The notes beneath the pieces are model-generated. The model ran no database searches. It had not been told where the DNA came from and worked only from the letters and a program-made list of their open reading frames with translations. The translations under genes and the position numbers were made by a program. DNA of 40,430 nt from Escherichia phage MirsaeidiM_Esher7: sequence record PQ593108.1; one strand, 5' to 3'. Of this stretch, positions 453 through 40,430 are shown in pieces (position 1 is the stretch's first letter; each line of letters opens with the position of its first letter).

Positions 453-995
453 TTACTTGTGGTTTCTATGAGACCTATCTCGCTTAGGGGACCGTAGGTT
501 TACTGCGTACTTCTTGTGCTTCTCTGTTCGTAAGGCGTCCAGCCAAGCCTCTAGTTCCTCTATGGAGTCCGAGGTCTTCGTGAAGCATTTACCTTTAACC
601 CGGAGCTGAGCACGATACTTGCCCGTTGGCTTGAAGAAGCTGATTCCTTTGGGCAGACCGTTAGTCTCCCCGCCTTCTGAGTTCCAGCGGTTCTCCAGCT
701 CAGTCACAAGCCTATAGTTCTCAGGCCTATCGTCAAGTCTATCACCATTAATATGGTCTACCAACATTCCATTAGGTATTCGACCTACAGCTAGACTATA
801 TATGATTCTTGAGCGTCTATATCTGCTTCCCAGCACCTTCACTATAGCATACCCGGATGGATGCACAGAGAAGCCCATTGGTTCACCCGGAATCTTCTTC
901 GAGCTACCGAAAGGCTTCTTGCACACCAAGTTTCCGTCAACATATGCGTAGTGGTTAAAGAGGGCCACCCTGTCGATGGCCTTCTGTTTACTCAT
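453..995 (-). CDS. HNH endonuclease with C-terminal AP2-like DNA-binding domain (putative homing endonuclease)
   Basis: 180 aa; HNH motif region VDHINGDRLDDRPENYRLVT; C-terminal GISFFKPTGKYRAQLRVKGK...SIEELEAWLD resembles an AP2 domain; ATG with AGGAGGAG RBS; T7 has no such gene here. Confidence 0.8.
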   Translation of the reverse strand: MSKQKAIDRVALFNHYAYVDGNLVCKKPFGSSKKIPGEPMGFSVHPSGYAIVKVLGSRYRRSRIIYSLAVGRIPNGMLVDHINGDRLDDRPENYRLVTELENRWNSEGGETNGLPKGISFFKPTGKYRAQLRVKGKCFTKTSDSIEELEAWLDALRTEKHKKYAVNLRSPKRDRSHRNHK

Positions 996-2772: not shown

Positions 2773-3218
2773 TGCGTCACCTCCTTATCTTGCTGCAAGG
2801 CTCTCACAGTGTCCTGAAGGGCCTTAATCCACTTGTCCCCTTTCAGTCCGATGGCGATAAGACGTTTAGCATCTCGTTCGTCAAGTTCGGCGAAATCATC
2901 AATGACGCATCGACCGTCACTTTGCGTGGTTCCACTCGTTGGTTTGACTCGGATGCGCAACCGCTTATTGTCAGACTGAAGGTCAGCAATAATCCTATCA
3001 GTGCTGCCTTCCAGCGAGGACATTTCGTCCTGAAACCGTTTGGACACTTTGTTGACTTCAGCTTGGACAGCAAGCCTTGTATCTTCCGATGCCTTAAGAT
3101 TCGAGGTGTATTCTTCATTGACCTTAGCCTCCCACTTATTGTTAGCGGTGTGGTATCCACCAGCAAACATCACTGCTGCAAGTAACCACGGAGCCGCTCT
3201 CTTTAAAAATTCGAGCAT
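2769..3218 (-). CDS. Rz-like i-spanin (T7 gp18.5-like)
   Basis: 149 aa, N-terminal TM segment ([21 protein letters not shown]), close match to recalled T7 gp18.5; position after small terminase. Confidence 0.9.
2843..3118 (-). CDS. Rz1-like o-spanin lipoprotein embedded in Rz (+1 frame)
   Basis: ORF wholly inside Rz in another frame with lipobox LTISGC after a hydrophobic stretch ([12 protein letters not shown]). Start uncertain: the ORF extends to 3166; I chose the internal ATG at 3118. Confidence 0.55.
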   Translation of the reverse strand: MKNTPRILRHRKIQGLLSKLKSTKCPNGFRTKCPRWKAALIGLLLTFSLTISGCASESNQRVEPRKVTVDASLMISPNLTNEMLNVLSPSD

Positions 3219-3319: not shown

Positions 3320-3583
3320 TTATTGAACACCATACCCGGTGTCATTATCTTCCGTAGCCGAGAGCACCTTATCGTACTCTGCGTTCAGGGCCTCCATATC
3401 AGCCAGAGTCTTCTCGTCGACAGACACCTTGCTTAGCACGAAGTTGTGACGAGCCAGTAGCTTCTCAATGGCGTTGTAAAGCTGAGGTGAACGCTTAGTG
3501 TCATCCCGCAGGTCTTGCAGCATGAGTCGAGCACGTTCAGTATCTAGCATCAAGAGGAACTTCTCTAAGTCCATCTGCGTCAT
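3320..3583 (-). CDS. terminase small subunit (T7 gp18-like)
   Basis: 87 aa; ...FLLMLDTERARLMLQDLRDDTKRSPQLYNAIEKLLARH matches recalled T7 gp18; ATGA overlap with holin stop. Confidence 0.9.
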   Translation of the reverse strand: MTQMDLEKFLLMLDTERARLMLQDLRDDTKRSPQLYNAIEKLLARHNFVLSKVSVDEKTLADMEALNAEYDKVLSATEDNDTGYGVQ

Positions 3584-3777
3584 GTTTTACCACCTCCTCC
3601 TTTAATCGTTTTGTAGACTAGCACACCAATCTGGACAACGGTGTACGCGATAGCTGCAACGTAGAACCATTCGTTAAGTGTGAGCCCGAAGAAGAACCGA
3701 CTGGCACCATCAGCCGCAGCGGTCCCGACTATAGGAGAGGCTTTAAGGACCTCATTCTTGAAGTCTAACTCAATCAT
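3580..3777 (-). CDS. holin (T7 gp17.5-like)
   Basis: 65 aa with one hydrophobic TM segment and charged C-terminus; GGAGG RBS; located between tailspike and small terminase. Confidence 0.8.
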   Translation of the reverse strand: MIELDFKNEVLKASPIVGTAAADGASRFFFGLTLNEWFYVAAIAYTVVQIGVLVYKTIKGGGGKT

Positions 3778-3886: not shown

Positions 3887-6800
3887 TTACTTCTGTTCAA
3901 GAGCAGAAAGTCTGGCTTCGATTCTTTCCAGTTTTCTTCTCTGATAAGCGGCTTCAGCAAAGAAAATTCCGTCAGGCCGAACACCCCACTCCTCACCCTC
4001 TTCGTGAATAACCACCTCGGTGTACACAGGTTCTTCAGTAGTAGTGACATTACCCTCCTCGTCAGTGTGTTCAATGATTTCATTGTGCGAAAATACCGTA
4101 TCGGTCATCCGTGGATACTTGTCATAGCACAGAACAGCATAACGACAATTCGTACTGTTTTCATCCATCAGACCATGTGCAATGAATACATCACGAATTT
4201 GCTGAGCAATAACCCCGAAGTGAATACGAGCATCATTGCCTTTCAGTTGAACAGCATCTAACCACTGGTACATGATGTAGTGAACGTCACCCCAAGCATC
4301 TAGGAAAGCATCATCAAAAACTACCGGCTCTGTTTTCCTCTCCCCGTTAGAAGTAACAATAGGGTTACTTCCAAGGTATGCAGTGGAGAAACGGTTGCGA
4401 GGCCCACCAAGCGCAGTGACGTTATCGTTATAAGGCTTAACATCAGCAGTCTGGAACAGATGCTCAGCTCCGTTGTAAACTATCCGCCTTGAGTCGGTGT
4501 TATTTGCACCATAAAGCGTAATCTGTGCGCCAGAAGAAGAACTGGTACTGTCGCCTCCGCAAAATATGGTGCGCTGCCCTGCAGGGTTATCAGTCGGTAT
4601 AGATTTCCCGATAAACCCATATTCACCTTCCATTAAAACTTCAGAGCGAATGTTACTACTGGTGCTGGCTCTAATGGTCACATGACCTAAACCCAAATCC
4701 CCTGTAAATTCCATTGGCGCAGGAACAGTGCGAATCCCATTCGTATCAAAAAACACGGGAACAGCTCTGTTAGGTACAGCACCATACCTGAAATCACGGG
4801 AAACATGATTGCTTGGGCCAATCTTCATTTTGTAGCAATACAAATCTGAGGGATGACCATCCGATTTGAATGGGTCCTTCGCTGAGTTATCTCCATATGT
4901 CCATGGGTTAAAATGGTCCTCTCCACCAAACATGTAGTAGATGTAATTATCCTTCACAACTACCGAACCAACACCTACACCTGAGTTAACTATTCCGCCC
5001 TGATAAATCTGGTCAGTGATGTTAACCCATTCAATATCATCTGCATTCCAATTGTTTACATTCAAGCGTGCATAGAAGGTGCGAGGATAAGATGCCTTGT
5101 AACGATCATCTGGTGCACCTGCTTCCCATTCATTTTCTGCACGTTCTGAACCAAACATAATAAGGTCATCCCCTACTTTAGCAAAAGGTAATGTAGTATG
5201 ATGAACATTATGTGGAAATCTCAGTGACTCCCAAGTCTGACCTATGTCTCTACTACGATGCAAAGAGCTACCTAGTCTATCCCCACGAGTACCACGAGTG
5301 ATAAGATACAATACACCATCATAGTACTTGATGCACGGTTCTGACGCATCTGGTTCATACTCAGCTGGTATCTGACGACGAACATAGTTAGCTGGATTGT
5401 CGAAAGCATTAGGGAAGTAGAAGAGTCCAACTTCGCGTGGAGCTACATCGCCTTGATGATAACCCATAACAAAGCCATTGTTATCAATAGTAGCAAAGCT
5501 ATGCACCTCTGTGACACGAGGGATTAGACCAAGGTCTGTCTTACGCCATGGAGACTTATGGAAAGAAGTACCCATGTGCCAATTCTTTCCAGCGTTATTC
5601 AAATCTGAAGTCTGCTGGTTGGATGTAAGAACCGTGAAGTTGTCCTTATCTATTATGGTTGCAACAGTCATATCACCGGATACACCTGTTACCGCAGAAT
5701 TAGAGAAGTTAACAAAATCACCCACGAATAGTCCGTGGTCTGGTACATGTATTGTTGCATATGGCTGATTTGCATCTTTAGTGATACCACCAGTAAGATG
5801 CAGGCTACGAGACATGGGGCGATCCCACAATGCACAATTGGTTAATTCGTTCTTGGCTAAAGTACGTGTTTCAATCATGGCAAACAGACGGTTGCGACAT
5901 ACGCCCATACTCATACAGTGATAGTTCACTGTAGGGTAATCTGGATGCAGATCAGTTAACCACTCTGGAGTAGACCATGTTTGACCATCATCACCAGACT
6001 TAACCCATGATACATGCAGACGACTAACACCATGACGATCGCTACCCATGTAAGGTGCATATATTACATTATCATATACGAACGCTTTATCCTGAGGCCA
6101 CGCATTGTAATAAGGGGTGTCCGTTATTTTGAACAACTCCCCCTGAACAAATTCCTCAGAGGCATAATAAAGAGGTTGTCCGGGAATGCGCTCATAAACG
6201 AAACGAGTGTTGATGAAGCGACTAATGTCAGGCAGGGATGTGACCTTATATGTCTTCCCATTGCCATTAATCTTTTGTCCAACCGGTATGTCGTTTAATG
6301 CGCTCGTTAACGCTGCTGTATCATCAGTGACACCATCCCCTTTAGCACCCCAACCACGAACATCATTTTCATCAAGCCAGCGTGCTCTATGTAATTCAGG
6401 GTAGAGTATTGCCCCTTCCGGGTTTGAAATCTGACTTCTTAAAGCAGCATCACCAACACTAACCCACGCACCTAATCCAATCCCACCAGAAGTTTCAGGA
6501 GTTGAACCAGCAGGAACGTTCTTTGGAAGCGTACCATCCCAGCGGTAATAATCACCATCCTCTTCCCATAGCAGGACCTCGCTCCATGTTGTAACGTTGT
6601 AGCCTTTCTCGAAGGAGCGACGGGTCATATAGCCAATTAGACCAGCTTCCCTGATACTCTCAGCGATTCGGCGTGCTTCGTCCTCGCTATCCTTAGCGTT
6701 GCCAGCAGAGCTACCAGCAGCATCGGCATATTCCTTCGCTAAGTCAACCGTTTGGTCTCGACCTTCTTCTGCAATATGGATAGCCTGAAGCTCTGAATTG

Positions 6801-7081
6801 GTCAGGTCACTAGCTGTCAACACTGAGCCATTCCTGAAGTCTACCACTAAGTCAGTTCCAGTCTGACGGTGAATACGAACGATGTCGAAACCTGATTGGT
6901 CAACCAACATCTCAATCATCGTTGGATTAAGGAATCGGTAATCTCGACCAACTTCCAGTACACGGTTCAGGGTAGGGTTAGAGCTATTCACCAGCGTAAC
7001 AACAACAAACGTTCTAGCTAGGTAATCGAACTCAATCCTGTACTGAGTGTTCCCTGAAGGGAATTGTGTAATCGTGGACAT
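3887..7081 (-). CDS. tailspike: endo-N-acetylneuraminidase (K1 capsule endosialidase, endoNF-like) with T7 gp17-like N-terminal adaptor and C-terminal intramolecular chaperone domain
   Basis: 1064 aa. N-terminus (IEFDYLARTFVVVTL) resembles the T7 gp17 tail-attachment domain; two Asp-boxes SGDDGQTW (aa 362-369) and SRDIGQTW (aa 610-617); E581, R596, R647 and S911 fall exactly where I recall the endoNF catalytic residues and the maturation cleavage site. Confidence 0.93.
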   Translation of the reverse strand: MSTITQFPSGNTQYRIEFDYLARTFVVVTLVNSSNPTLNRVLEVGRDYRFLNPTMIEMLVDQSGFDIVRIHRQTGTDLVVDFRNGSVLTASDLTNSELQAIHIAEEGRDQTVDLAKEYADAAGSSAGNAKDSEDEARRIAESIREAGLIGYMTRRSFEKGYNVTTWSEVLLWEEDGDYYRWDGTLPKNVPAGSTPETSGGIGLGAWVSVGDAALRSQISNPEGAILYPELHRARWLDENDVRGWGAKGDGVTDDTAALTSALNDIPVGQKINGNGKTYKVTSLPDISRFINTRFVYERIPGQPLYYASEEFVQGELFKITDTPYYNAWPQDKAFVYDNVIYAPYMGSDRHGVSRLHVSWVKSGDDGQTWSTPEWLTDLHPDYPTVNYHCMSMGVCRNRLFAMIETRTLAKNELTNCALWDRPMSRSLHLTGGITKDANQPYATIHVPDHGLFVGDFVNFSNSAVTGVSGDMTVATIIDKDNFTVLTSNQQTSDLNNAGKNWHMGTSFHKSPWRKTDLGLIPRVTEVHSFATIDNNGFVMGYHQGDVAPREVGLFYFPNAFDNPANYVRRQIPAEYEPDASEPCIKYYDGVLYLITRGTRGDRLGSSLHRSRDIGQTWESLRFPHNVHHTTLPFAKVGDDLIMFGSERAENEWEAGAPDDRYKASYPRTFYARLNVNNWNADDIEWVNITDQIYQGGIVNSGVGVGSVVVKDNYIYYMFGGEDHFNPWTYGDNSAKDPFKSDGHPSDLYCYKMKIGPSNHVSRDFRYGAVPNRAVPVFFDTNGIRTVPAPMEFTGDLGLGHVTIRASTSSNIRSEVLMEGEYGFIGKSIPTDNPAGQRTIFCGGDSTSSSSGAQITLYGANNTDSRRIVYNGAEHLFQTADVKPYNDNVTALGGPRNRFSTAYLGSNPIVTSNGERKTEPVVFDDAFLDAWGDVHYIMYQWLDAVQLKGNDARIHFGVIAQQIRDVFIAHGLMDENSTNCRYAVLCYDKYPRMTDTVFSHNEIIEHTDEEGNVTTTEEPVYTEVVIHEEGEEWGVRPDGIFFAEAAYQRRKLERIEARLSALEQK

Positions 7082-7128
7082 TATGCCTCCTGTTATGAAT
7101 TAAAAGGAGACCTATGGTAGCGCCTCCA

Positions 7129-7151
7129 GTTTCCTATAGTGATAGTTTAGT
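7129..7151 (-). promoter_or_regulatory. phage RNAP promoter (phi17-like)
   Basis: Plus-strand motif cctatagtgatagtttagtcc overlapping the end of gene 16, upstream of the tailspike gene. Confidence 0.75.
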
Positions 7152-10100
7152 CCTTGATGTGGATGCCCTGCTCCTCAAACGTTCCAAGCAACAGCTTCTG
7201 GGTAATGGGGTCGTTCGGAACCAGTTCACGGAACGTATTATACATCCCGGTCATGTAGTCACGCTCGTTGACACGAGTATCAGCCTTGAGGTAGCCAGCC
7301 AAGTTGTAAGCAGAAACGCCAACGTTAGCAGCATATCCGAAAGCTGGAACCTGCTCCAAGAAGTTACCAACAACATTCATCACAGGGTCACTTGTAGCCG
7401 CACCAAACGTGATGGCACGTTCAGGCTTCTCTGTAGGCGAACGAGGTAGGATAGACGAACGGAGCATCTTAGTGTCCTCATACCCAGCTATGCCACCTAG
7501 AATGTTAGCTACCCCAAGTGGTCCACCAAGGTGTGAACTACGGGACAGAGCCGCATATCCAATCATCGTCGGGTCCAGAGCTTGCTTGAGGTATTCACGG
7601 TCTCTGCCATCCTGCATAGCGTAAGCCTTTACGTGAGCCTGAGCCATGTAGTAGATACCAGATAGACCCATAGAGATCACAGTGGACAGGGCAGCGTCAA
7701 TCGCTCGGTTGTTCTTCGTGGCGTTATAGAAGGTACGCATGGTTCGCCCATTGATGGACTTGATGACGAAGTTCTTAAACTGAAGGACAGTCTTAGCGAT
7801 AGGACCATAAGCCTTTGCGTCCATGTTGGACAGCTTATGAGGACGTAGTAACGTTTCGTCAGCGATGGTGTCACCCATACGCCACAGGTCCATAGCCCTT
7901 GGGTCCTGACTGAACGCCTTCTTATCCTTGATGGTATACTTCCAGTCTGGACCACGAGTCACTGACTCACGGATGAGGGACTTAATGCCCTTCCACTGCT
8001 CGTCAGAGATACCAGCGGTCTTCAGCCATCGGTCATCGAACTTACGCTTACTACCAGTCAGGCTATGCTCCACGATGTCAGACAGGAAGCCTTGACGTCC
8101 AGCATCTAACAGGTAGTTGGTCGTACCGTTGAGGACTTTAGTGAACGGAGAGCGTACTGCAAGTTCGCCAGTGTAATACTTGGCAGTCCCCAGAGCTGTA
8201 GCTGTACCACGACCGAGGTCACTGTAAGATCGCAGACGGTCAATGACATCCTGTTTAGACGGACGGATTGAGTCATCCAGTTCCTTACCGAAGATAACAT
8301 TGTGCAGGTCCTTAATCTCTGAGGCCCCAACCTTCTTGTTACGGAAGGCTAGGTCACGGAAAATTGGGACTCCATGCAGCATTGCACGAACGTTGCCACG
8401 AGCCAGCATACCACCAATCTCCGTTAAGTTCTGAACACCCATGTAGGCATTCTTAGCGAAGAACGATAGGTCTGTCATTGTGCGCATCACGGTAGCGAAG
8501 GCTGCATCATCAGCACCATCACGTCGAGCACGACCAGTTAGAATCTTCAAGGTGTCACGTAAGGTAGATACTTCACCTTTCAACTTACCGTCATCCCCAG
8601 CCTTGTTCATCATGGTCTCAACCAAGTCCTTCATGTCCTTCGTGGTTTTGCCTGTACCAGCCATGATAGCAATATCGCCATTAATTCGACGGTTGTAGGC
8701 CGGGACAATCTTGTCCATGTCCCACTCACGCAGGTTGTTGACACTGAAGGTCTGACCATTAGGTAGGACGATTGACATATCGCTATCGAACAGGTTACGA
8801 GCCTCAAGGAAGCTGTTGTTCTCCAGACCCACCAGACCATTGATGTTCTCTTCCATTACGGATGAACGCTCGAACTGCTCGGTGTGAGAGATACCATAAG
8901 CCTTATCGTTGGCGTACTTATCGACCGCAGCCGCAAGTCCTTCTGGAGTCAACGTAGGATCAGCCTCTAAGAGTGCCTCGTCCACACGTTTCTTGACCTC
9001 AGGTCGAGACGCATAGCTGGTCAACCATGACTTCTTGATGGCCTCCTGTAGTGCCTCTGGACTCCCAAGCTCCTTGATGTACAGCTCCTTCATCTGGTTG
9101 CTATACACATGCGGGACGTAGGTTCCCTTGAAGCGGCTGCCCGGAAAGATAGACTGAGCGTCTGGACGACCAAACATCGCCGGGTTCTCCATCATCTCAC
9201 GCTTGGCGTCAAACTGGCTCTTCAGCAGGTCATAGACTTTCAGTTCTCCCGGAGTCAGTTCAGCCTTCAGGTTCCCACTTCCGTCTTCAATAGCCATAGA
9301 CACACGCTGGTAGATGTCCTGACGGAATGCGCCAGAGTCTCGCCAGAATGCTGTCTGGAAGTATGGGTCCTTGAGCGCCTCAGTAACCGCGTCGTCGATG
9401 TCGTTGTAGAACCGATGGTCCACAGCACGAAGTCTCTCGAATACGTCTGACGCAGTGGTCCCGATTTTACCTGAGGCCCCTGACTGCATACCAGTCGGTG
9501 AACGCACTAAGTCAGCAGCTACTCCACGAATCTCAGGGTTCTCAGACCGAAGCAGCTTCAGGCCAATCTCGGTAAGTCCACCAAGGTTCACACCAGCAGC
9601 GGCACGTTCTGGCTCAATCACTTCGTCAAAGACCTTACGTGTCTTAGGGTTCAGAGGGTTCTCACCAATCAGGATTGAACCATCTTCCAGTCGTACACTA
9701 CCCGGCTCATTCGGAACGTCAGCGAACTTAACTCCTTGATGACTAAAGGTCTGCTCACCTTCCTGAATAGGGAGACGAGACAGGTCCTGACCATCAATGT
9801 TACGAGCGGTCTCACGAGCTTCCAGACGTGTAGCTGGGCCAGCGAACTCATTAGTGTTGCGACCTAAGGCTCTGCCTAACCCATCAGCGATAGCAGTCAT
9901 ACCACCACCGAAGAGAGCACCACCAAGGATAGCTTCAGCCACATGAGTATCGCCACCAGCCACTGAGGTACGGGCCATCTCGGACACACCAGCAAGTGCT
10001 CCAGATTGAGCAGCCACGGTGAACATCTTGTTGACCAGCTTCGCACCTTTGCCAACCTGTCCAGCGATAGGAACGTAGGTCAGCGGGTCTACACCAGCAC

Positions 10101-11043
10101 CAATCACACCAGCTGCTAACTGAGCACCAGTCCCAGCCTTGGCCTTCTCTTGGTCCAACTTCTGGTTCTCAAGCGCCAAGTTAATAAGCTCGGTCAGGTT
10201 CTGAGGAGAGCCACCAGTAATGACACCGTAATACTGAGGGAGAACTCCAGCGTTACGAATCTGGTCCAGCTCCTCACGAGACCACTTATGGTTGTTCCAG
10301 CGGGTAGGGTTGAACACATCGCCAATGACATCAAGTGAGTCCTCGGTCTGACCAGCGCGGATAGCCACGCCGACCATAGAGTTCTTCACTTCAGCTTCTG
10401 TAGCCGAGCCGAAACCGAACCACGTAGAGCGGCCCTCTCGTTCCTGCATGGTCTCGCCAGTAGACTTATAGAACATCTCACCGAACGATTCGTTGGGAGC
10501 TTCAGGTGCTTGACCCTCAATGTTTAGACCAGCAGCGGTCGGAAGGTTCTCACCCAGAGCTACTTTAGGTTTAGCCTTGAGTCCTTCCGTGAGTGCGTCA
10601 AATACGTTAGCGCTTACTGGTGGAGTCTTTGGGGTTATGCCTCCCGCACCACTTAAGGCACGAGAGACGCCAGTCTTGTAGACCTCAGGGTCATACCGGG
10701 AACCAGTCTCGTGGTAGCCGATAGCCTCAGACAGAGAGGCTAGGACATCAGGGTTCGTCAAGTCGATACTTTGGGTCGCTGGAATGCCAGTAGCAGCCAC
10801 AACCGAGTCTATGTAAGACTGAGTGTCGTTCTCGCTGGGGGGCGCCCATCGGTTGATAATCTTCTCGATTGAGTCATAGCCTTGGCGACCGTAGCTTTGA
10901 AGGTTTTTCGCTAAGGCTCGGACCCCAGATTCAGGACTGTCGAAGATGACGAATTCACCATCGTCGCCTATAGCACCTTCCCACTGGTCTTTGGACTTAC
11001 GGAGGTTACCGGGGTTTGCGTTCCTTACACCACGTGTTGCCAT
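7147..11043 (-). CDS. internal virion protein D (T7 gp16-like) with N-terminal lytic transglycosylase domain
   Basis: 1298 aa; size and position match T7 gp16; N-terminal region is consistent with the gp16 transglycosylase domain. Confidence 0.9.
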   Translation of the reverse strand: MATRGVRNANPGNLRKSKDQWEGAIGDDGEFVIFDSPESGVRALAKNLQSYGRQGYDSIEKIINRWAPPSENDTQSYIDSVVAATGIPATQSIDLTNPDVLASLSEAIGYHETGSRYDPEVYKTGVSRALSGAGGITPKTPPVSANVFDALTEGLKAKPKVALGENLPTAAGLNIEGQAPEAPNESFGEMFYKSTGETMQEREGRSTWFGFGSATEAEVKNSMVGVAIRAGQTEDSLDVIGDVFNPTRWNNHKWSREELDQIRNAGVLPQYYGVITGGSPQNLTELINLALENQKLDQEKAKAGTGAQLAAGVIGAGVDPLTYVPIAGQVGKGAKLVNKMFTVAAQSGALAGVSEMARTSVAGGDTHVAEAILGGALFGGGMTAIADGLGRALGRNTNEFAGPATRLEARETARNIDGQDLSRLPIQEGEQTFSHQGVKFADVPNEPGSVRLEDGSILIGENPLNPKTRKVFDEVIEPERAAAGVNLGGLTEIGLKLLRSENPEIRGVAADLVRSPTGMQSGASGKIGTTASDVFERLRAVDHRFYNDIDDAVTEALKDPYFQTAFWRDSGAFRQDIYQRVSMAIEDGSGNLKAELTPGELKVYDLLKSQFDAKREMMENPAMFGRPDAQSIFPGSRFKGTYVPHVYSNQMKELYIKELGSPEALQEAIKKSWLTSYASRPEVKKRVDEALLEADPTLTPEGLAAAVDKYANDKAYGISHTEQFERSSVMEENINGLVGLENNSFLEARNLFDSDMSIVLPNGQTFSVNNLREWDMDKIVPAYNRRINGDIAIMAGTGKTTKDMKDLVETMMNKAGDDGKLKGEVSTLRDTLKILTGRARRDGADDAAFATVMRTMTDLSFFAKNAYMGVQNLTEIGGMLARGNVRAMLHGVPIFRDLAFRNKKVGASEIKDLHNVIFGKELDDSIRPSKQDVIDRLRSYSDLGRGTATALGTAKYYTGELAVRSPFTKVLNGTTNYLLDAGRQGFLSDIVEHSLTGSKRKFDDRWLKTAGISDEQWKGIKSLIRESVTRGPDWKYTIKDKKAFSQDPRAMDLWRMGDTIADETLLRPHKLSNMDAKAYGPIAKTVLQFKNFVIKSINGRTMRTFYNATKNNRAIDAALSTVISMGLSGIYYMAQAHVKAYAMQDGRDREYLKQALDPTMIGYAALSRSSHLGGPLGVANILGGIAGYEDTKMLRSSILPRSPTEKPERAITFGAATSDPVMNVVGNFLEQVPAFGYAANVGVSAYNLAGYLKADTRVNERDYMTGMYNTFRELVPNDPITQKLLLGTFEEQGIHIKD

Positions 11044-14495: not shown

Positions 14496-14518
14496 AGTCC
14501 CTATAGTGATAGTTAAGG
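14496..14518 (-). promoter_or_regulatory. phage RNAP promoter (phi13-like)
   Basis: Plus-strand motif tccctatagtgatagttaaggta between gp12 and gp13. Confidence 0.75.
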
Positions 14519-14542: not shown

Positions 14543-16900
14543 TTAGACGGAACGAGCTTTCTTAGCGTATGACGCCTCCCAGCCACATCCAACGATTGAC
14601 ACTGGGGTAGGATAGTCGGACTCTAAGGTTAGACTCGTGGTTAATGCGTTACCATTCATAGCGAAGCGATACTGCCCGTCACCAATGTTAGTAGTCCCTA
14701 TGGTTTGCTGACCAAGGGTGTACCCATTAAAGGTGTTAACGAACTCTCGCTCACCGTTTCTGACAATGAGTCTCAGAGCGCCAGTGTCCTTGTAGTTGAC
14801 CCAAGCCCGACGAAGCTGTAGACGACCAGTGTCTTCAGACTGAGTGCCACTATTATCTTCAATCTTAATCAGGAACCGTGAGAACTTGTAGGACATCAGA
14901 TAGGGCCGTCCGATGAACACTGTACGTCCTGACCAATCGCCGTTGAGGGTAATCACAGTAGAGATACTGGTCAAGTCCCCAATGTCCACATAAGCACCCT
15001 GACTGTCAATCAGATAGTACCGACCGGGAGACGGAGCGTTACCACCATAAGCAGCACCAATGTCAACCGTAGTCTTATATGTGTCAGCATTAAACGAGCC
15101 AATTGGGATGACCATAGACACCTTGGAGTCAACGTGGAGTCTATACGGCTCTGACGGAAAGTCAGTTGCCTCCTTGATGAACTTAAGGTGCTCAATGTCT
15201 ACCCCTCCTTGGTGCTGACGAACGATGAACATGGTAGAGCCAATAGAAGCAGACGCAAGAATCTTATCATCTTTAGGGAACTCCCAGTGTGACCAAGAGG
15301 CTTGAAGCTGTACGCCGTCCTTAAACAAGAACTTGTAGATGTAGATACGGTTGTATGCACCTGTAGAGTTGACGCAGATGTAGTTCTCAGTCCCTGTACC
15401 TTGAATATCAAACACCCCGTTAGGGATGTAGGACAGTACGTGACCAGTTGTATCATCTGCATCCTTCACATCAGACACATCAGCTACAGCGAAGTATCGC
15501 TTAATGCTGGTGAAGGACCCACGAGGAGCTGAGAAGAAGACTGAGCGTCCTACAGCGAACGGTCTGGCATTGTCACCTAGGGCAAACTCTGAGCCTACAT
15601 CAAGCTGGATAGACTTCGAGGTAAGGACCCCAGAGCTTGTCATCACGAACTGAACCTCATCCGACCAAAGTAGCAGCTGCTCGCTAAACGGAACGGCATA
15701 CTTAAGGATTGAGATTCGAGGGTGACTTACAGCTACATCAATAGGGTCATCATCACTCAGTGTCGCCACACTCTTAGGGAAGAACGAAAAGTAGCTGGCT
15801 GAACGGCTCATGATTACGTTCTCACCCGACAAGAACCCAAGTCTGTTCCTGTAGAAGAACACATCATTAATCGCAGCATCCACGAAGCTAGGCATAGGGT
15901 TTGTGTCATCATTACCAGCACCACGCTTGGACCAATCCAGAGTCTTGAACTCAAAGGAGCCATCAGATTGTCGTACCAGAGCGTGTGGCATTGTGGTGTT
16001 ATCGAACCCAGTGACAACTCCCGGCTCCACTGTCTCCTTCCACGTCTTAGTGTTGGAGTCATACATCACGTAGTATTCATCGGCGCTACTGTTTGTTTCA
16101 CCCTGAATCTTAATGATATACCCATTAGGAGCAGCAAGAGGTAGTTTAGAGATTGTCTGCACAGTGTCTAGGACTGGGCTTATTAGCTGGTTAGCGTAGC
16201 CATCCTCCGTCTCCACTGAGTTAATATCGGTCCCTGAAGGAGCTGTGATTAGCAGGAATCCAGACCCAAGGTCAAACGTGAAGGTAGGATAGGAAGCAAC
16301 AAGAAGGTCTCTCAGAGCTGCACCAATGGCTTGAGCGTCAACCTTAGGTGGGTCCTTCTCGGCATCATTACCTGCTGGTAGCTTATGCGAGACCTTAACG
16401 CCACCGTTGATGCCCACCTTAAGGGTTCGACCATACTGCCCACCACGCAGGTTAATTAAAGCTCGTGCTTTGAGGTTATAACCAGAGTGTGACTTCTCGC
16501 TTCCACCTTTGACGACAACCTTACGGTTAACGACGAACGTATAGTCTGCCACGGTAACGACACGGATGTCATCTCGTGGGTTGGAGGACTTAACGTAGTC
16601 TACCGCACCTGACACTGAGTATTGATTACCACTCAAGTCAACTACCTGAATGTTGGACCCATTGAACACGATGTAATACTGCTCCTGCTCATCACGGTTA
16701 ATCAGGTGGAACTTAGGGTTGCTCCCAACGTCGATGTTAAGACGTCGCTTGAAGACTGTAGGTGGACGCTTCTGGAGGCCATCACTCTCTGATGACCAGC
16801 AGTTAACCTGTGCCTCGCCTTGGTCTGAGAACCTCAGGATGTCAGGCTGTTGGCTAATGCCACCCTTAAGATTTTTTATGCTTTGCGTAATAAGCGGCAT
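14543..16900 (-). CDS. tail tubular protein B (T7 gp12-like)
   Basis: 785 aa; size and position; TAATG overlap with gp11 stop. Confidence 0.9.
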   Translation of the reverse strand: MPLITQSIKNLKGGISQQPDILRFSDQGEAQVNCWSSESDGLQKRPPTVFKRRLNIDVGSNPKFHLINRDEQEQYYIVFNGSNIQVVDLSGNQYSVSGAVDYVKSSNPRDDIRVVTVADYTFVVNRKVVVKGGSEKSHSGYNLKARALINLRGGQYGRTLKVGINGGVKVSHKLPAGNDAEKDPPKVDAQAIGAALRDLLVASYPTFTFDLGSGFLLITAPSGTDINSVETEDGYANQLISPVLDTVQTISKLPLAAPNGYIIKIQGETNSSADEYYVMYDSNTKTWKETVEPGVVTGFDNTTMPHALVRQSDGSFEFKTLDWSKRGAGNDDTNPMPSFVDAAINDVFFYRNRLGFLSGENVIMSRSASYFSFFPKSVATLSDDDPIDVAVSHPRISILKYAVPFSEQLLLWSDEVQFVMTSSGVLTSKSIQLDVGSEFALGDNARPFAVGRSVFFSAPRGSFTSIKRYFAVADVSDVKDADDTTGHVLSYIPNGVFDIQGTGTENYICVNSTGAYNRIYIYKFLFKDGVQLQASWSHWEFPKDDKILASASIGSTMFIVRQHQGGVDIEHLKFIKEATDFPSEPYRLHVDSKVSMVIPIGSFNADTYKTTVDIGAAYGGNAPSPGRYYLIDSQGAYVDIGDLTSISTVITLNGDWSGRTVFIGRPYLMSYKFSRFLIKIEDNSGTQSEDTGRLQLRRAWVNYKDTGALRLIVRNGEREFVNTFNGYTLGQQTIGTTNIGDGQYRFAMNGNALTTSLTLESDYPTPVSIVGCGWEASYAKKARSV

Positions 16901-18901: not shown

Positions 18902-18924
18902 TCTCCCTATAGTGATAGTTTAGT
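18902..18924 (-). promoter_or_regulatory. phage RNAP promoter (phi10-like)
   Basis: Plus-strand motif ccctatagtgatagtttagtcc immediately upstream of the capsid gene. Confidence 0.8.
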
Positions 18925-19889: not shown

Positions 19890-19912
19890 TGTTCCTATAG
19901 TGATAGTTTAGG
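19890..19912 (-). promoter_or_regulatory. phage RNAP promoter (phi9-like)
   Basis: Plus-strand motif cctatagtgatagtttaggc overlapping the portal gene end. Confidence 0.75.
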
Positions 19913-22728: not shown

Positions 22729-22751
22729 AGTCCCTATAGTGATAGTTTAGT
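22729..22751 (-). promoter_or_regulatory. phage RNAP promoter (phi6.5-like)
   Basis: Plus-strand motif ccctatagtgatagtttagtg between the exonuclease gene and gp6.5. Confidence 0.75.
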
Positions 22752-24458: not shown

Positions 24459-24619
24459 TAGTCTTTCTCCTCTTCGGCATCAGGTGTAAGAAGCTCACGG
24501 ATGTCAGAAGCACAAGACCCTGACAAGTTCGGGCAATAGCGAGAGGTCTCGTGACCACTCCACCAAGCACTTCTCATAAGGTCTATGACCTCCTGTCTTG
24601 TAAAGGTCTGCTTCTTCAT
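24458..24619 (-). CDS. small hypothetical protein (53 aa) in the gp5.3 slot
   Basis: ATG at 24619 overlaps the DNAP stop (TGATG), GGAAGGAG RBS upstream, stop overlaps the gp5.5 start (TAATG). Product MKKQTFTRQEVIDLMRSAWWSGHETSRYCPNLSGSCASDIRELLTPDAEEEKD. Below the 60-aa cut-off of the supplied ORF track. Confidence 0.45.
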   Translation of the reverse strand: MKKQTFTRQEVIDLMRSAWWSGHETSRYCPNLSGSCASDIRELLTPDAEEEKD

Positions 24620-26790
24620 CAATGACACTCCTTCCACGTTGGTCCAATCTTACCTTCGGTATCAAGGACACATTTAAAGTTATAGAACTCACCAACCTTA
24701 CGCATAGCAAGTTGAGCAATTTCTACTACGCGTTCTGCTAAGTCCTTGTTTTTACAGGCAATTTGTAGCTCATCGTGCACCCATGCCATGTACGCAAAGT
24801 CTCCATCCCAGCCGTGGACATATCCTTCGGCTTCGAGCATACGCTCGGTCTCGACAATCCAGTGCTTACAGACCACAGCACCATCACCTTGAAGTAATGC
24901 GTTAAGTGCTGAGTGTGGAGACCGGATGTGGATGCGTCGACCATCCAAGCCTTTAAGCCAGCGGCGTTTCCACTTCACGATATTCTCACCGTCTACCCAT
25001 TTGGACTCAGAGATTAACGTATTACTCACAGCTTCCCTGAGGTCCTTGATGGCTGGTGTACCCTCAATGAATTTCTTCATCAGGGCCGCACCTTCCTTCT
25101 TACCACCGCCAACTATCAGTCCAATCTTCGCGGCCCCTGCACCATACAGGAACGCATAGATGAACGTCTTGGCGTTATTACGGAAAGCATCGTGGTCGTG
25201 GTTCGACTTATCGCGTTGGACGTTAGGTGCTAACCCAGCGTTGACAGCGTTGGCCCAGTGGATGTCACCTTCTACCACAGTCTTGGCGTATTCACCACCA
25301 TCAAACGGAGCCGCTCGGTTCCCCAGACAACGAAGCTCAAGACCTGAAGCATCCACACCCACTTGAATCCAAGGGTCTGGCTTACCATCCGTCTTGTTCC
25401 AAGCTGCACCGAAAGCACCACGGCAAATCTCACCATACGGAGCACCGTTAGCAGGTACCTGAGCCATGTTTGGTGAACTGTGAGTCGCACGTCCAGTTAC
25501 TGCTCCGCATGGGTTGATTGAACCGTGCATACGTCCGTCTGGACCTACAAGTTTCAACCATGCGTTCTTACCTTCAGCAGCCTGACCTATGCGCTTCTGG
25601 ACTACCAGATACTCACGGACCAGCTCTACGCAAGCCTGAGCCTCTGCGTCCGGTAACTTAACGTGTTCTAACGTCTCGTCATCGACTACAGGTTTCCCGG
25701 TGTCAGTGAAGTCCACAGGCTCCCAGCCACGCTCCATCAGAACTTTCGCTAAGTGGTCCCCGCTTCCCGGATTAAACTCAACGTAAGTGATAGGTGTGAA
25801 CGGCGCTCCCTCCATCGTGTCTCGTGAGTCTAACTCGCAAGGCTCCAGACCTAAGCGTTGAGCTTTGTTCTTCGGCTTCTTGAATACTGACCCGACCTTA
25901 GGATACACGACGCGCGGATACTTCGGAAGGTCCTTGCCTGTCCGTGGGTGCTTTAAAAACTCCTTGCCACCCTTCGGTGCATACCAGCTACCGAAAGTCG
26001 AACGCAGCTTGTCCAGCAGCTCTGCACGTTTGACGGTTAGTTCACGATATAAGCCTTCGACCATCTCGGTGTTCATCGGATAGCCGTTACGCTCCATCTT
26101 CGCACAGGTCCACGCAGCATCATGTTCCAGACGCAACGCATAAATCTGGTCGAAAGCGAACTGTTCAGACTGGAAGTAATACTTGTCAGTCAGGAACTTC
26201 TTGAACAACGCCAGTGTGACCACAACGTCTTGAACGTTATAGTCCAGCATCTCCTGAGACGGGAACAACCATTCGTCTCCAGCCTTATATTCGATACCTT
26301 CAGCCTTGCACTTGGCAACGTAATCGTGTTTGTACTCACCTTTCATCTCACCGAGACGATAGCCCCAAGCCTCAAGAGACTGGCGTCCCATCATCTTAGG
26401 TGGCAGACGACCAGCTTTCACCGCGCCCATGTCTGAGAACTTAATGTTTGGATACATCAAGCGTCCCAGAACTAAGGTATCAATCATCTTATGTTTCGGG
26501 AAGTTAAAGCGTTTCCCAAAGTACAAACGCTTCAGCTTGTCTATAGCCGGGACGTCATAGTTGATACCGTTATGGAATACCAGCATACCATCAGGTGATG
26601 CGGCAATCTCTTCCACTTTATGAACATACTCTTTGAAGCCGCCGACGATACCGACCATCGGAGCTACCCCATACTTAAGGGTCTCATTCGACTCGGCGTT
26701 AATCAGGACCCCACAGTGAAACTGGGAGACTGTATCAAGGAGACCGTTGGTCTCGATGTCAGAACCCCAGATACTCTTAAGGTCAAACAT
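24619..26790 (-). CDS. DNA polymerase (T7 gp5-like, family A with 3'-5' exonuclease)
   Basis: 723 aa; extensive similarity to recalled T7 gp5 (DIETNGLL, QDVVVT, NGAVTGRATH, GIDASGLELRCL, AKTFIYAFLYGAG, DFAYMAWVHDE, terminal ...GPTWKECH); GGAGG RBS. Confidence 0.97.
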   Translation of the reverse strand: MFDLKSIWGSDIETNGLLDTVSQFHCGVLINAESNETLKYGVAPMVGIVGGFKEYVHKVEEIAASPDGMLVFHNGINYDVPAIDKLKRLYFGKRFNFPKHKMIDTLVLGRLMYPNIKFSDMGAVKAGRLPPKMMGRQSLEAWGYRLGEMKGEYKHDYVAKCKAEGIEYKAGDEWLFPSQEMLDYNVQDVVVTLALFKKFLTDKYYFQSEQFAFDQIYALRLEHDAAWTCAKMERNGYPMNTEMVEGLYRELTVKRAELLDKLRSTFGSWYAPKGGKEFLKHPRTGKDLPKYPRVVYPKVGSVFKKPKNKAQRLGLEPCELDSRDTMEGAPFTPITYVEFNPGSGDHLAKVLMERGWEPVDFTDTGKPVVDDETLEHVKLPDAEAQACVELVREYLVVQKRIGQAAEGKNAWLKLVGPDGRMHGSINPCGAVTGRATHSSPNMAQVPANGAPYGEICRGAFGAAWNKTDGKPDPWIQVGVDASGLELRCLGNRAAPFDGGEYAKTVVEGDIHWANAVNAGLAPNVQRDKSNHDHDAFRNNAKTFIYAFLYGAGAAKIGLIVGGGKKEGAALMKKFIEGTPAIKDLREAVSNTLISESKWVDGENIVKWKRRWLKGLDGRRIHIRSPHSALNALLQGDGAVVCKHWIVETERMLEAEGYVHGWDGDFAYMAWVHDELQIACKNKDLAERVVEIAQLAMRKVGEFYNFKCVLDTEGKIGPTWKECH

Positions 26791-31170: not shown

Positions 31171-31193
31171 CTGTCCTACAGTGATAGTTTAGG
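31171..31193 (-). promoter_or_regulatory. phage RNAP promoter variant (phi2.5-like)
   Basis: Plus-strand motif cctacagtgatagtttaggtc upstream of the SSB gene, overlapping the end of gene 2. Confidence 0.6.
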
Positions 31194-32470: not shown

Positions 32471-32493
32471 TGTCCTATAGTGATAGCTTAGTG
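32471..32493 (-). promoter_or_regulatory. phage RNAP promoter (phi1.5/1.6-like)
   Basis: Plus-strand motif cctatagtgatagcttagtg. Confidence 0.7.
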
Positions 32494-34073: not shown

Positions 34074-34121
34074 GTTAATCATGAAGGCCACGACTTTGAG
34101 TCATGACCTTTAGTCTAATCC
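34074..34121 (-). promoter_or_regulatory. conserved imperfect hairpin, candidate RNase III site (R1.1 position)
   Basis: Third copy of the hairpin element, between the phi1.1-like promoter and gene 1.1. Confidence 0.4.
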
Positions 34122-34138
34122 TATAGTGATAGTTTAGG
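34116..34138 (-). promoter_or_regulatory. phage RNAP promoter (phi1.1-like)
   Basis: Plus-strand motif tcctatagtgatagtttaggtt. Confidence 0.75.
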
Positions 34139-37193: not shown

Positions 37194-37216
37194 GAGTCCT
37201 ATAGTGATAGTTAAGT
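37194..37216 (-). promoter_or_regulatory. phage RNAP promoter-like motif immediately upstream of the RNAP gene
   Basis: Plus-strand motif cctatagtgatagttaagtc with a divergent initiating region (GGACUC rather than GGGAGA); +1 is about 75 nt upstream of the RNAP ATG. Confidence 0.5.
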
Positions 37217-37221
37217 CATAA

Positions 37222-37482
37222 TTACTTGCATATCAGTGGGTTAGCGTGAAGATGACTGAAGTCACCGTGAGTCGTGTGCTTGATGGTTGACCGTTGGTCT
37301 ATCGCCTTCCAGCCTGAGACTAAAAGTTTACCATCGTCAGTGCTCGGTCGTCCACCATACGCCAGACACATCAGTTCGGACTTATGGCCCTCAGCCTCCA
37401 TGCGGCGGTGTAAGAACACGTCACGCTGTATTTGCTCTACACTGCTACGGATAGATGGTCTGTTAATGTATACGGTTTTCAT
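37222..37482 (-). CDS. hypothetical early protein
   Basis: 86 aa; ATGA overlap with the upstream nuclease gene stop. Confidence 0.5.
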   Translation of the reverse strand: MKTVYINRPSIRSSVEQIQRDVFLHRRMEAEGHKSELMCLAYGGRPSTDDGKLLVSGWKAIDQRSTIKHTTHGDFSHLHANPLICK

Positions 37483-37931
37483 TGTTGGTGTTCCCTTAAG
37501 TATTTGATTGCGTTGGATAATACCGCCTGTGAATCGTTAAACTTACCGAGGGCAAGATTACACTCCGTGCAGAGTAGACCTCGTACCTTGCCTGTTACAT
37601 GGCAGTGGTCTACCGCAAGACGCCGCTGGAGTGCGTCAGGATTTCCACATATTGCGCACACTCCTCCTTGCTCCTGAAGCATTTCTGCGTACTGAGCGGA
37701 TGTGATGCCATACCGTTTTTTTAGAGTTGAGTTAAGACACGCGTCCTTGTACGCATCTGACTTACGGTAGCGGCTTCTTAGCTCTTGCGCCATTTTCCCA
37801 GATTTATATTGAGCGATTTTCTCGTTTCGACACTTCTTGCAGTGGCCTTGGTAGCCATCTTTGTTCTTGGAGTCCTTATAGAACTCGCTCTTGGGTTTTA
37901 ATTCTCCACACTTACTACAAGTCTTACACAT
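37479..37931 (-). CDS. endonuclease VII-family (HNH-type) nuclease with N-terminal zinc-ribbon
   Basis: 150 aa; motif GGVCAICGNPDA...LAVDHCHVTGKVRGLLCTECNLALG is the Endonuclease_7 signature; N-terminal CKTCSKCG...HCKKC zinc ribbon. Confidence 0.8.
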   Translation of the reverse strand: MCKTCSKCGELKPKSEFYKDSKNKDGYQGHCKKCRNEKIAQYKSGKMAQELRSRYRKSDAYKDACLNSTLKKRYGITSAQYAEMLQEQGGVCAICGNPDALQRRLAVDHCHVTGKVRGLLCTECNLALGKFNDSQAVLSNAIKYLREHQQ

Positions 37932-40375: not shown

Positions 40376-40430
40376 GGTCTTCAATGGGCGTATTCCCACT
40401 CCGTCTTATAGTCCTCTTCAGAGAACGAAC
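40376..40430. repeat. terminal direct repeat copy, identical to 1-55
   Basis: Exact 55-bp match to window start. Confidence 0.8.

Follow-up and report, generated by a model that had tools for sequence, protein, structure and literature searches.

A predicted K1F-type endosialidase tailspike with a self-cleaving C-terminal chaperone in a Kayfunavirus relative of phage K1F

In Escherichia phage MirsaeidiM_Esher7 (PQ593108.1), gene 17 occupies positions 3887..7081 on the minus strand of the 40,430-nt stretch of DNA that was analysed (the window) and encodes an intact predicted endosialidase tailspike precursor, which runs from ATG to TAA over 1064 aa plus stop. The genome is collinear with that of phage K1F, with gene 16 upstream of gene 17 and holin gene 17.5 and gene 18 downstream. 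A putative phage-RNA-polymerase promoter of gene 17, ACTAAACTATCACTATAGGAAAC (7129..7151, minus), overlaps the stop codon of gene 16 (7147-7149). Its core, ATCACTATAGGA, is matched 15 times with at most two mismatches, against 3.0 matches expected, and 10 copies of the core, all on the minus strand, have a common cTAAACT upstream context. A promoter is also annotated at the position equivalent to 7129..7151 in the old K1F record M63657. The element probably functions as a promoter, and by analogy with T7 the transcription of gene 17 would start at G7134. The ribosome-binding site, read from the sequence as GGAGG (7086..7090, minus), lies 4 nt upstream of the ATG, and equivalent features are present in M63657 and in phage Pipis. 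No intrinsic terminator was found in the 109-nt spacer between gene 17 and the holin gene, while the terminator-like matches (4, against 2.6 expected) lie inside coding sequence and are consistent with chance.

The N-terminal part of the protein contains a T7 gp17-like anchor for spike-to-tail attachment (aa 10-115; 6737..7054, minus; Pfam PF03906, E 1.3e-15). The T7 gp17 structures 7boz, 8dsp and 8e4g match this anchor with E-values of 1e-15 to 1e-18 (7boz over aa 6-116 with E 1.1e-15, and with E 4.8e-17 when the N-terminus was searched alone), and both the Pfam and the 7boz match indicate that the T7-like adaptor proposed in an earlier note on this DNA is real. The anchor is separated from the enzymatic part by a small TSP1/gp66-type N-terminal domain (aa 156-211; 6449..6616, minus; PF18668, E 3.7e-19), which also matches the structures of CBA120 TSP1, TSP3 and TSP4, and the catalytic part begins with an N-terminal extension (aa 246-312; 6146..6346, minus; PF12218, E 2.4e-37). 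The predicted junction of the adaptor and enzyme modules is at about aa 230-245, just upstream of this extension; the tailspike of PDB 9vvr has a single mismatch over aa 1-230 and is divergent beyond. The reading of aa 147-224 as a 'branching' domain at which a second tailspike would attach, by comparison with KP32, G7C and CBA120, was dropped, as the holin gene directly follows gene 17 and no second tailspike gene is found after it. In the literature, K1F is depicted as a mono-RBP, anchor-only system.

The catalytic beta-propeller (aa 313-754; 4820..6145, minus) matches PF12217 with E 7.8e-222 over profile positions 1-366 of 367. Its active-site codons on the minus strand specify H350 (6032-6034), R549 (5435-5437), E581 (5339-5341), R596 (5294-5296) and R647 (5141-5143), all of which are present and invariant among 11 aligned homologues; their roles are those given in the K1F deep mutational scan, in which the catalytic residues were intolerant to substitution (PMC12632334). 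Strict Asp-boxes (S-x-D-x-G-x-T-W) occur exactly twice in the protein, both in the propeller, as SGDDGQTW at aa 362-369 (5975-5998, minus) and SRDIGQTW at aa 610-617 (5231-5254, minus), which bears out the two motifs given in the earlier note; when the protein was shuffled 20,000 times with its composition kept, no shuffle produced two or more such boxes. More broadly, 24 functionally named residues are all identical in the gene 17 product, and 23 of them are invariant in 11 aligned endosialidases with identity down to 77 % (Q330, D331, H350, H527, S528, R549, E581, K585, R596, R647, N699, R812, Y821, R837, S848, Q853, R866, T910, S911, N912, K916, G956 and D994). Only K410 is not invariant: it differs in two phages and was dispensable in the K1F scan (PMC12632334).

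The stalk, or tail-spike domain (aa 757-910; 4352..4813, minus; PF12219, E 4.8e-77), is the region in which substitutions relative to K1F gp17 are densest (12 of 156 aa). It retains R837, S848 and Q853, reportedly residues of the stalk binding site (Schwarzer 2009). The stalk residue R897 (4391-4393, minus) is conserved in five aligned proteins, including K1E gp47, and is flanked by two differences from K1F, S895R, which is shared with phages Pipis and phiYIO1-1, and T899S, which is shared with phage Esher6.

The C-terminal intramolecular chaperone, a predicted self-cleaving domain (aa 911-1064; 3890..4351, minus), matches PDB 3gw6 with E 1e-180 and scores 36.2 bits against Pfam Peptidase_S74 (PF13884), for which the cut-off is 22. 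It differs from the K1F domain by a single amino acid, and S911, K916, N912, G956 and the stalk residue R897 are all conserved; the codons of the self-cleavage dyad lie at 4349-4351 (S911, nucleophile) and 4334-4336 (K916, general base) on the minus strand. The roles of these residues in the processing of S74 chaperones have been described (PMC3828593, PMC8326128, PMC3742443): the S911-K916 dyad cuts N-terminal of S911 (PMC3828593), R897 is needed for autocleavage (PMC8326128), and the serine departs with the released chaperone (PMC4690869). The K1F annotation likewise gives gp17* as a mature peptide of aa 2-910 and gp17-CTD as a separate one. The annotation and the literature thus place the scissile bond at T910|S911, and the released domain would comprise aa 911-1064 (nt 3890-4351). 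The earlier note was right that a C-terminal domain of this kind exists, but had let it begin one residue too late (aa 912-1064, nt 3890-4348); similarly, E581, R596, R647 and S911 are all found where it had put them, although S911 is the nucleophile of self-cleavage and not a sialidase residue.

Chaperone domains of this type are found on unrelated cargo. In T5 pb1, GA-1 gp12 and the eukaryotic MYRF/MrfA proteins (ICA, CIMCD), a Ser-Lys dyad also cuts just N-terminal of the serine after trimerisation. These are distant homologues, T5 pb1 having 18 % identity with the chaperone domain of K1F and MYRF 16 % with that of the endosialidase; the GA-1 neck appendage structure 3gud matches the domain with E 6e-13. 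The long tentacle loop of endoNF (T977-H1026), on the other hand, is absent from most such chaperone domains (PMC3742443).

Aligned over its whole length with gene 17 of phage K1F (endoNF), the gene is of equal length (1064 aa) and shows no gaps, with 32 amino acid and 87 nucleotide differences (97.0 % and 97.3 % identity); the alignment that had been proposed as a check of the endosialidase assignment therefore finds the catalytic residues kept. Crystal structures of endoNF (1v0e, 3gvl, 3gvj and 3gvk) match aa 245-910 with E=0 in a PDB sequence search, and the chaperone-containing construct 3gw6 matches aa 790-1064 with E 1e-180, so that aa 246-1064 are already covered by structures at ≥96 % identity. 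The families End_N_terminal, End_beta_propel, End_beta_barrel, End_tail_spike, Peptidase_S74 and Phage_T7_tail all score above their curated Pfam cut-offs. Both the domain order and the catalytic, binding and autocleavage residues are those of K1F gp17 (CAJ29390.1; PDB 1V0E, 3GVL, 3GW6). Across the whole gene, pN/pS relative to K1F is 0.19, which indicates purifying selection. Gene 17 is thus very probably (about 0.95, as judged from sequence comparison) the K1F-type endosialidase tailspike of a K1F-like T7-type podophage of the genus Kayfunavirus. Such an endosialidase (endo-N-acetylneuraminidase of the K1F endoNF type) is assigned to family GH58. Polysialic-acid cleavage, autocleavage and K1 host specificity are attributed to the gene 17 product by its close homology to K1F endoNF. 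For K1F, this enzyme has already been characterised in detail, including the structure, the catalytic residues and the self-cleaving chaperone, and in this respect gene 17 is ordinary.

By this homology, gene 17 would be transcribed from its own phage-polymerase promoter, and the 1064-aa precursor would trimerise with the help of the C-terminal chaperone (aa 911-1064), which is expected to template the triple-beta-helix stalk. After correct folding of the stalk, the active site would be completed by R897 from a neighbouring chain, and the S911/K916 dyad would then cut T910|S911 and release the chaperone. The mature spike (aa 2-910), seated on the tail by its T7 gp17-like anchor, would bind alpha-2,8-polysialic acid at three sites (one each in beta-barrel, stalk and propeller) and cut it, which could allow the phage to tunnel through the E. 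coli K1 capsule to the cell surface.

The closest deposited gene encodes the 'tail fiber protein' of MirsaeidiM_Esher6 (PQ585404.1, XLM28304.1; 99.3 % nt and 99.2 % aa identity), a generic name and the only one in that record; the two proteins have eight amino acid differences, four of which are the barrel substitutions of the gene 17 product discussed below. The 22.5-kb partial genome of Esher6, at 98.0 % identity to the window, is also the closest relative overall. Endosialidases carried by other types of phage, K1E gp47 (Vectrevirus), IME207 (Shuimuvirus) and YX22 (Ackermannviridae), share with the gene 17 product the propeller, barrel and stalk, the chaperone and also the key residues but carry other N-terminal attachment modules, and for IME207 and YX22 the similarity starts only at about nt 524-562 of gene 17. 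K1E gp47 is 93-96 % identical to K1F in the propeller and 98.8 % in the barrel, whereas its stalk (63 %) and CTD (32 %) are divergent and it is without a T7 gp17-type anchor.

The comparison with the full K1F genome, which had been suggested as a further check, aligned 94.9 % of the window in collinear blocks at 94.25 % identity, the product of about 89.5 % being a rough blastn estimate and not a VIRIDIC value. Phages of one species usually share ≥95 % whole-genome nucleotide similarity, and at 89.5 % the phage falls below this threshold for the species Kayfunavirus K1F. It lies within the genus Kayfunavirus (K1F-like Studiervirinae), for which the criterion was a collinear T7-like genome whose nucleotide similarity to K1F is about 70 % or more, and its best whole-genome matches are all Kayfunavirus phages. 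Of the two options left by the earlier note, K1F or a close relative, the latter holds: on nucleotide similarity, the phage is a Kayfunavirus relative of K1F and not K1F itself.

With respect to the host, phages that carry the gene at ≥95.5 % nucleotide identity have been isolated on K1 strains, for example UTI89, O18ac:K1:H7 and K1 LU_100. Two database entries that contain a nearly identical gene are labelled with hosts that are not K1 strains (E. coli MG1655, Acinetobacter baumannii); these labels may be unreliable, but they mean that the host is not readable from the gene with certainty. The host is accordingly given as a prediction, K1-capsulated E. coli, and gene 17 supports the annotation of the window as a K1F-like phage that is presumably specific for the K1 capsule. 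K1 strains of E. coli are a cause of meningitis in newborns and of urinary-tract and avian disease, and endosialidases serve as polysialic-acid reagents and phage-therapy components.

The gene 17 product might in principle bind polysialic acid yet be catalytically inactive or unprocessed, as a lectin-like or decayed copy. The only ground for considering this is that activity or processing is known to be lost through single substitutions, for example R596A/R647A or S911A. No evidence in favour of such a copy was found when the open reading frame, the named residues and pN/pS were compared: the frame is intact, the catalytic and autocleavage residues are all conserved, and pN/pS is as low as given above. 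Moreover, the T7-like genome is otherwise complete and has no other tailspike gene, which suggests that the phage depends on this one, and an inactive copy therefore seems highly improbable.

A different question is raised by the beta-barrel, the polysialic-acid-binding domain inserted in the propeller (aa 424-506; 5564..5812, minus; PF12195, E 2.4e-46). The barrel is nearly invariant among K1F-type endosialidases, whereas the gene 17 product differs from K1F by A436D, R440P, V476I and P487S, which could modify polysialic-acid binding. A436D, V476I and P487S are private to this protein, at positions conserved in every homologue examined; A436, V476 and P487 are kept in K1F, K1E, IME207 and even in the divergent YX22, whose barrel is 70 % identical to that of K1F. 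One possible explanation is that these three substitutions, with R440P, shift the fine specificity of the spike, for example in the handling of O-acetylated K1 capsule or in the discrimination of K1 strains. Within the 249-nt barrel, the gene differs from that of K1F at four nucleotides, each time non-synonymously and never synonymously, against 30 non-synonymous and 53 synonymous differences elsewhere (Fisher p=0.02, post hoc), and four of the eight amino acid differences from the nearest homologue fall within the 83-aa barrel (binomial p=0.002, post hoc). A database search found no phage record matching the barrel segment at >97 %, and in the K1F mutational scan the site in the beta-barrel is named as a hotspot of host discrimination (PMC12632334). 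However, these are small counts with tests picked post hoc, the substitutions may be sequencing or passage artefacts, and in the same scan the barrel was largely permissive on the reference host, so that the changes may be neutral; the text of PMC12632334 makes no mention of positions 436, 440, 476 or 487. An adaptive retuning of capsule binding that alters the set of infectable K1 strains, for example with respect to capsules that are O-acetylated or modified in another way, is thus a rather unlikely reading of these substitutions. If it were true, they would be the equivalent in nature of the discrimination hotspot of the deep mutational scan. At most, the gene 17 allele adds natural variants of the barrel and stalk binding sites that may be compared with the published scan of K1F.

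Record M63657 annotates a CDS shorter than the 1064-aa open reading frame, and its 'terminator' feature (positions 2970-3070) falls within that frame, at 4221..4121 of the window. On the plus strand, open reading frames antisense to gene 17 are present at 4004..4261, 5478..5768 and 6014..6298, opposite a strongly conserved coding region, and are treated here as chance frames.

Gene 17 of MirsaeidiM_Esher7 (3887..7081, minus strand) is a single uninterrupted ORF of 1064 codons, running from ATG to TAA, and its product is an endosialidase tailspike of the K1F type, which is already known in detail. Along its full length, the gene is 97.3 % identical at the nucleotide level to gene 17 of the reference phage K1F, and the two proteins align without gaps, with 32 amino-acid and 87 nucleotide differences. 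The overall pN/pS in this comparison is 0.19, as purifying selection on a functional gene would be expected to give. The gene is closer still (99.3 % nucleotide identity) to one annotated as a 'tail fiber protein' in MirsaeidiM_Esher6. The exact protein sequence has no identical entry in a collection of 15 billion proteins. The stalk differences from K1F (including I838T, E844D, G845S, T849S and T850S) represent a natural allele shared by Esher6, Pipis and phiYIO1-1.

The earlier note had proposed a K1F endosialidase on a T7 gp17-like N-terminal adaptor, and both elements were recovered. Residues 245–910 match the K1F endosialidase crystal structures 1v0e, 3gvl, 3gvj and 3gvk (E=0), while residues 790–1064 match the chaperone-containing construct 3gw6 (E 1e-180). 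The Pfam architecture of an endosialidase is complete, with all families exceeding the curated cut-off: Phage_T7_tail (aa 10–115), Tail_spike_N (PF18668, the TSP1/gp66 N-terminal domain; aa 156–211, 6449..6616, minus strand, E 3.7e-19), End_N_terminal (aa 246–312), End_beta_propel (aa 313–754) with an inserted End_beta_barrel (aa 424–506, 5564..5812, minus strand), End_tail_spike (aa 757–910) and Peptidase_S74 (aa 916–971). The protein contains exactly two strict Asp-boxes, as had been noticed, SGDDGQTW (aa 362–369) and SRDIGQTW (aa 610–617); among 20 000 shuffles of gp17, two such motifs never occurred and one occurred in 25.

The residue roles assigned in the earlier note were compared with the published literature. 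In a deep mutational scan of the K1F tailspike published in 2025, H350, R549, E581, R596 and R647 were identified as key catalytic and sialic-acid-binding residues that are highly intolerant to substitution, and Q330, D331, H527, S528, K585, N699, R866 and D994 were also highlighted (PMC12632334). The endosialidase chaperone is cut directly N-terminal of S911, with K916 acting as the general base (PMC3828593), N912 and G956 are likewise essential (PMC3742443), and the serine leaves with the released chaperone (PMC4690869). All of these residues are present in gp17, including E581, R596, R647 and S911 at exactly the positions originally proposed, and they are invariant in 11 aligned endosialidases, down to the 77 %-identical YX22 protein. 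R897, which is required for the cleavage (PMC8326128), is conserved in a separate alignment of five proteins, among them K1E gp47, a protein sharing just 63 % identity with K1F in the stalk and 32 % in the C-terminal domain. S911, which had been listed with the sialidase residues, is the self-cleavage nucleophile and has no part in the sialidase site. The predicted self-cleaving C-terminal domain is present, but its start had been placed one residue too late: since the K1F annotation splits the protein into mature gp17* (aa 2–910) and the C-terminal domain (aa 911–1064), in agreement with the literature, the released domain comprises aa 911–1064 (nt 3890–4351) and not aa 912–1064 (nt 3890–4348). 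With this boundary and the identity of the phage (see below) corrected, the original interpretation is supported.

By homology, the gp17 precursor would trimerise, with the C-terminal domain templating the stalk; correct folding would place R897, and S911 and K916 would cleave the T910|S911 bond, upon which the C-terminal domain would depart. The mature spike, held by its T7 gp17-like N-terminus, would bind and depolymerise the alpha-2,8-polysialic acid K1 capsule, giving the phage access to the outer membrane. The recorded hosts of phages carrying a gene at least 95.5 % identical include UTI89, O18ac:K1:H7, DSM 30083 and 'K1 LU_100', which supports K1 E. coli as the probable host. MG1655 and Acinetobacter baumannii are listed in two records with a nearly identical gene, so the recorded hosts do not all agree.

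Over its N-terminal approximately 230 residues, gp17 has a single mismatch to another tailspike of known structure (PDB 9vvr, 843 aa), which diverges past residue ~231. The endosialidase part, from nucleotide ~524–562 of the gene onward, is found on unrelated chassis in Shuimuvirus IME207 (93.7 %) and in the Ackermannviridae phage YX22 (81.6 %). Together, these matches reflect the well-known exchange of anchor and enzyme modules, described for T7, K1F and K1-5 (PMC6872550). In this single-tailspike phage, the domain that follows the T7-type anchor and precedes the enzyme (aa 156–211) also matches the CBA120 TSP1, TSP3 and TSP4 structures; in reviews, K1F gp17 is drawn as 'anchor only'.

The sole unusual detail of gene 17 is a possible non-synonymous excess in the beta-barrel, which is a lead rather than a finding. 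All four nucleotide differences from K1F in this 249-nt segment are non-synonymous (A436D, R440P, V476I and P487S), compared with 30 non-synonymous and 53 synonymous differences elsewhere in the gene (Fisher p=0.02, a post hoc contrast of small counts). R440P is shared with phiHAO1-1 and YX22; A436, V476 and P487 are kept in all other endosialidases examined, including those of K1E and YX22, none of which carries A436D, V476I or P487S. No phage record searched with the barrel segment matched it at more than 97 %. In the K1F mutational scan, the barrel site was a host-discrimination hotspot, yet broadly permissive on the reference host (PMC12632334). The matches to the barrel segment in the phage database also included endosialidase beta-barrel-like sequence in four Mannheimia phage records. 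Such matches would be in keeping with the polysialic-acid capsule of Mannheimia haemolytica A2.

As in K1F, gene 17 lies between gene 16 (internal virion protein D, 7147..11043) upstream and holin 17.5 (3580..3777) and gene 18 (3320..3583) downstream. A GGAGG ribosome-binding site is located 4 nt ahead of the ATG, and a predicted 23-nt phage-polymerase promoter, ACTAAACTATCACTATAGGAAAC (7151..7129, minus strand), overlaps the gene 16 stop codon, where the older K1F endosialidase record M63657.1 also annotates a promoter. The promoter core has 15 matches in total against 3.0 expected. Ten of the copies share the same upstream context (consensus cTAAACTATCACTATAGGR), and all ten are on the minus (coding) strand and precede gene blocks (cores at 420–431, 7132–7143, 14499–14510, 18905–18916, 19893–19904, 22732–22743, 31174–31185, 32473–32484, 34119–34130 and 37197–37208). 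No convincing terminator was found 3' of gene 17. M63657.1 has a shorter CDS (110–2872, 920 aa), and its 'terminator' (2970–3070) corresponds to 4121–4221 of the window, within the continuous 1064-aa ORF of the window and of later K1F records.

The phage had been taken for K1F or a close relative; the latter holds, and at the sequence level MirsaeidiM_Esher7 is a K1F-like Kayfunavirus rather than K1F. In reverse complement, the window shows collinearity with the K1F genome (AM084414), with 94.9 % of it aligned at a mean identity of 94.3 % (product ~89.5 %), and its best full-genome matches are other Kayfunavirus phages (94–95 %). Esher6 provides the nearest sequence, a partial genome of 22.5 kb with 98.0 % identity along its whole length. 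The window is circularly permuted relative to K1F, the terminal-repeat region of which is internal (~256–456 of the reverse complement), and its first and last 55 nt (1–55 and 40376–40430) are identical, as circularised assembler contigs typically show, giving a unique length of 40 375 nt.

Two minus-strand ORFs look like homing endonucleases, judging from their profile matches: a 180-aa HNH endonuclease downstream of gene 19 (453..995; phrog_99, E 4e-39) and a 150-aa endonuclease VII-type protein in the early region (37479..37931; phrog_2633, E 1e-42). Both sit in stretches without alignment to K1F. Approximately 600 nt of K1F (14932–15530), at DNA polymerase gene 5, have no counterpart in the window. 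The K1F annotation gives this gene as a joined CDS enclosing the ORF gp5.3, whereas the polymerase ORF of the window (24619..26790, minus strand; 723 aa) is uninterrupted, suggesting that K1F carries an intervening mobile element that is missing here.
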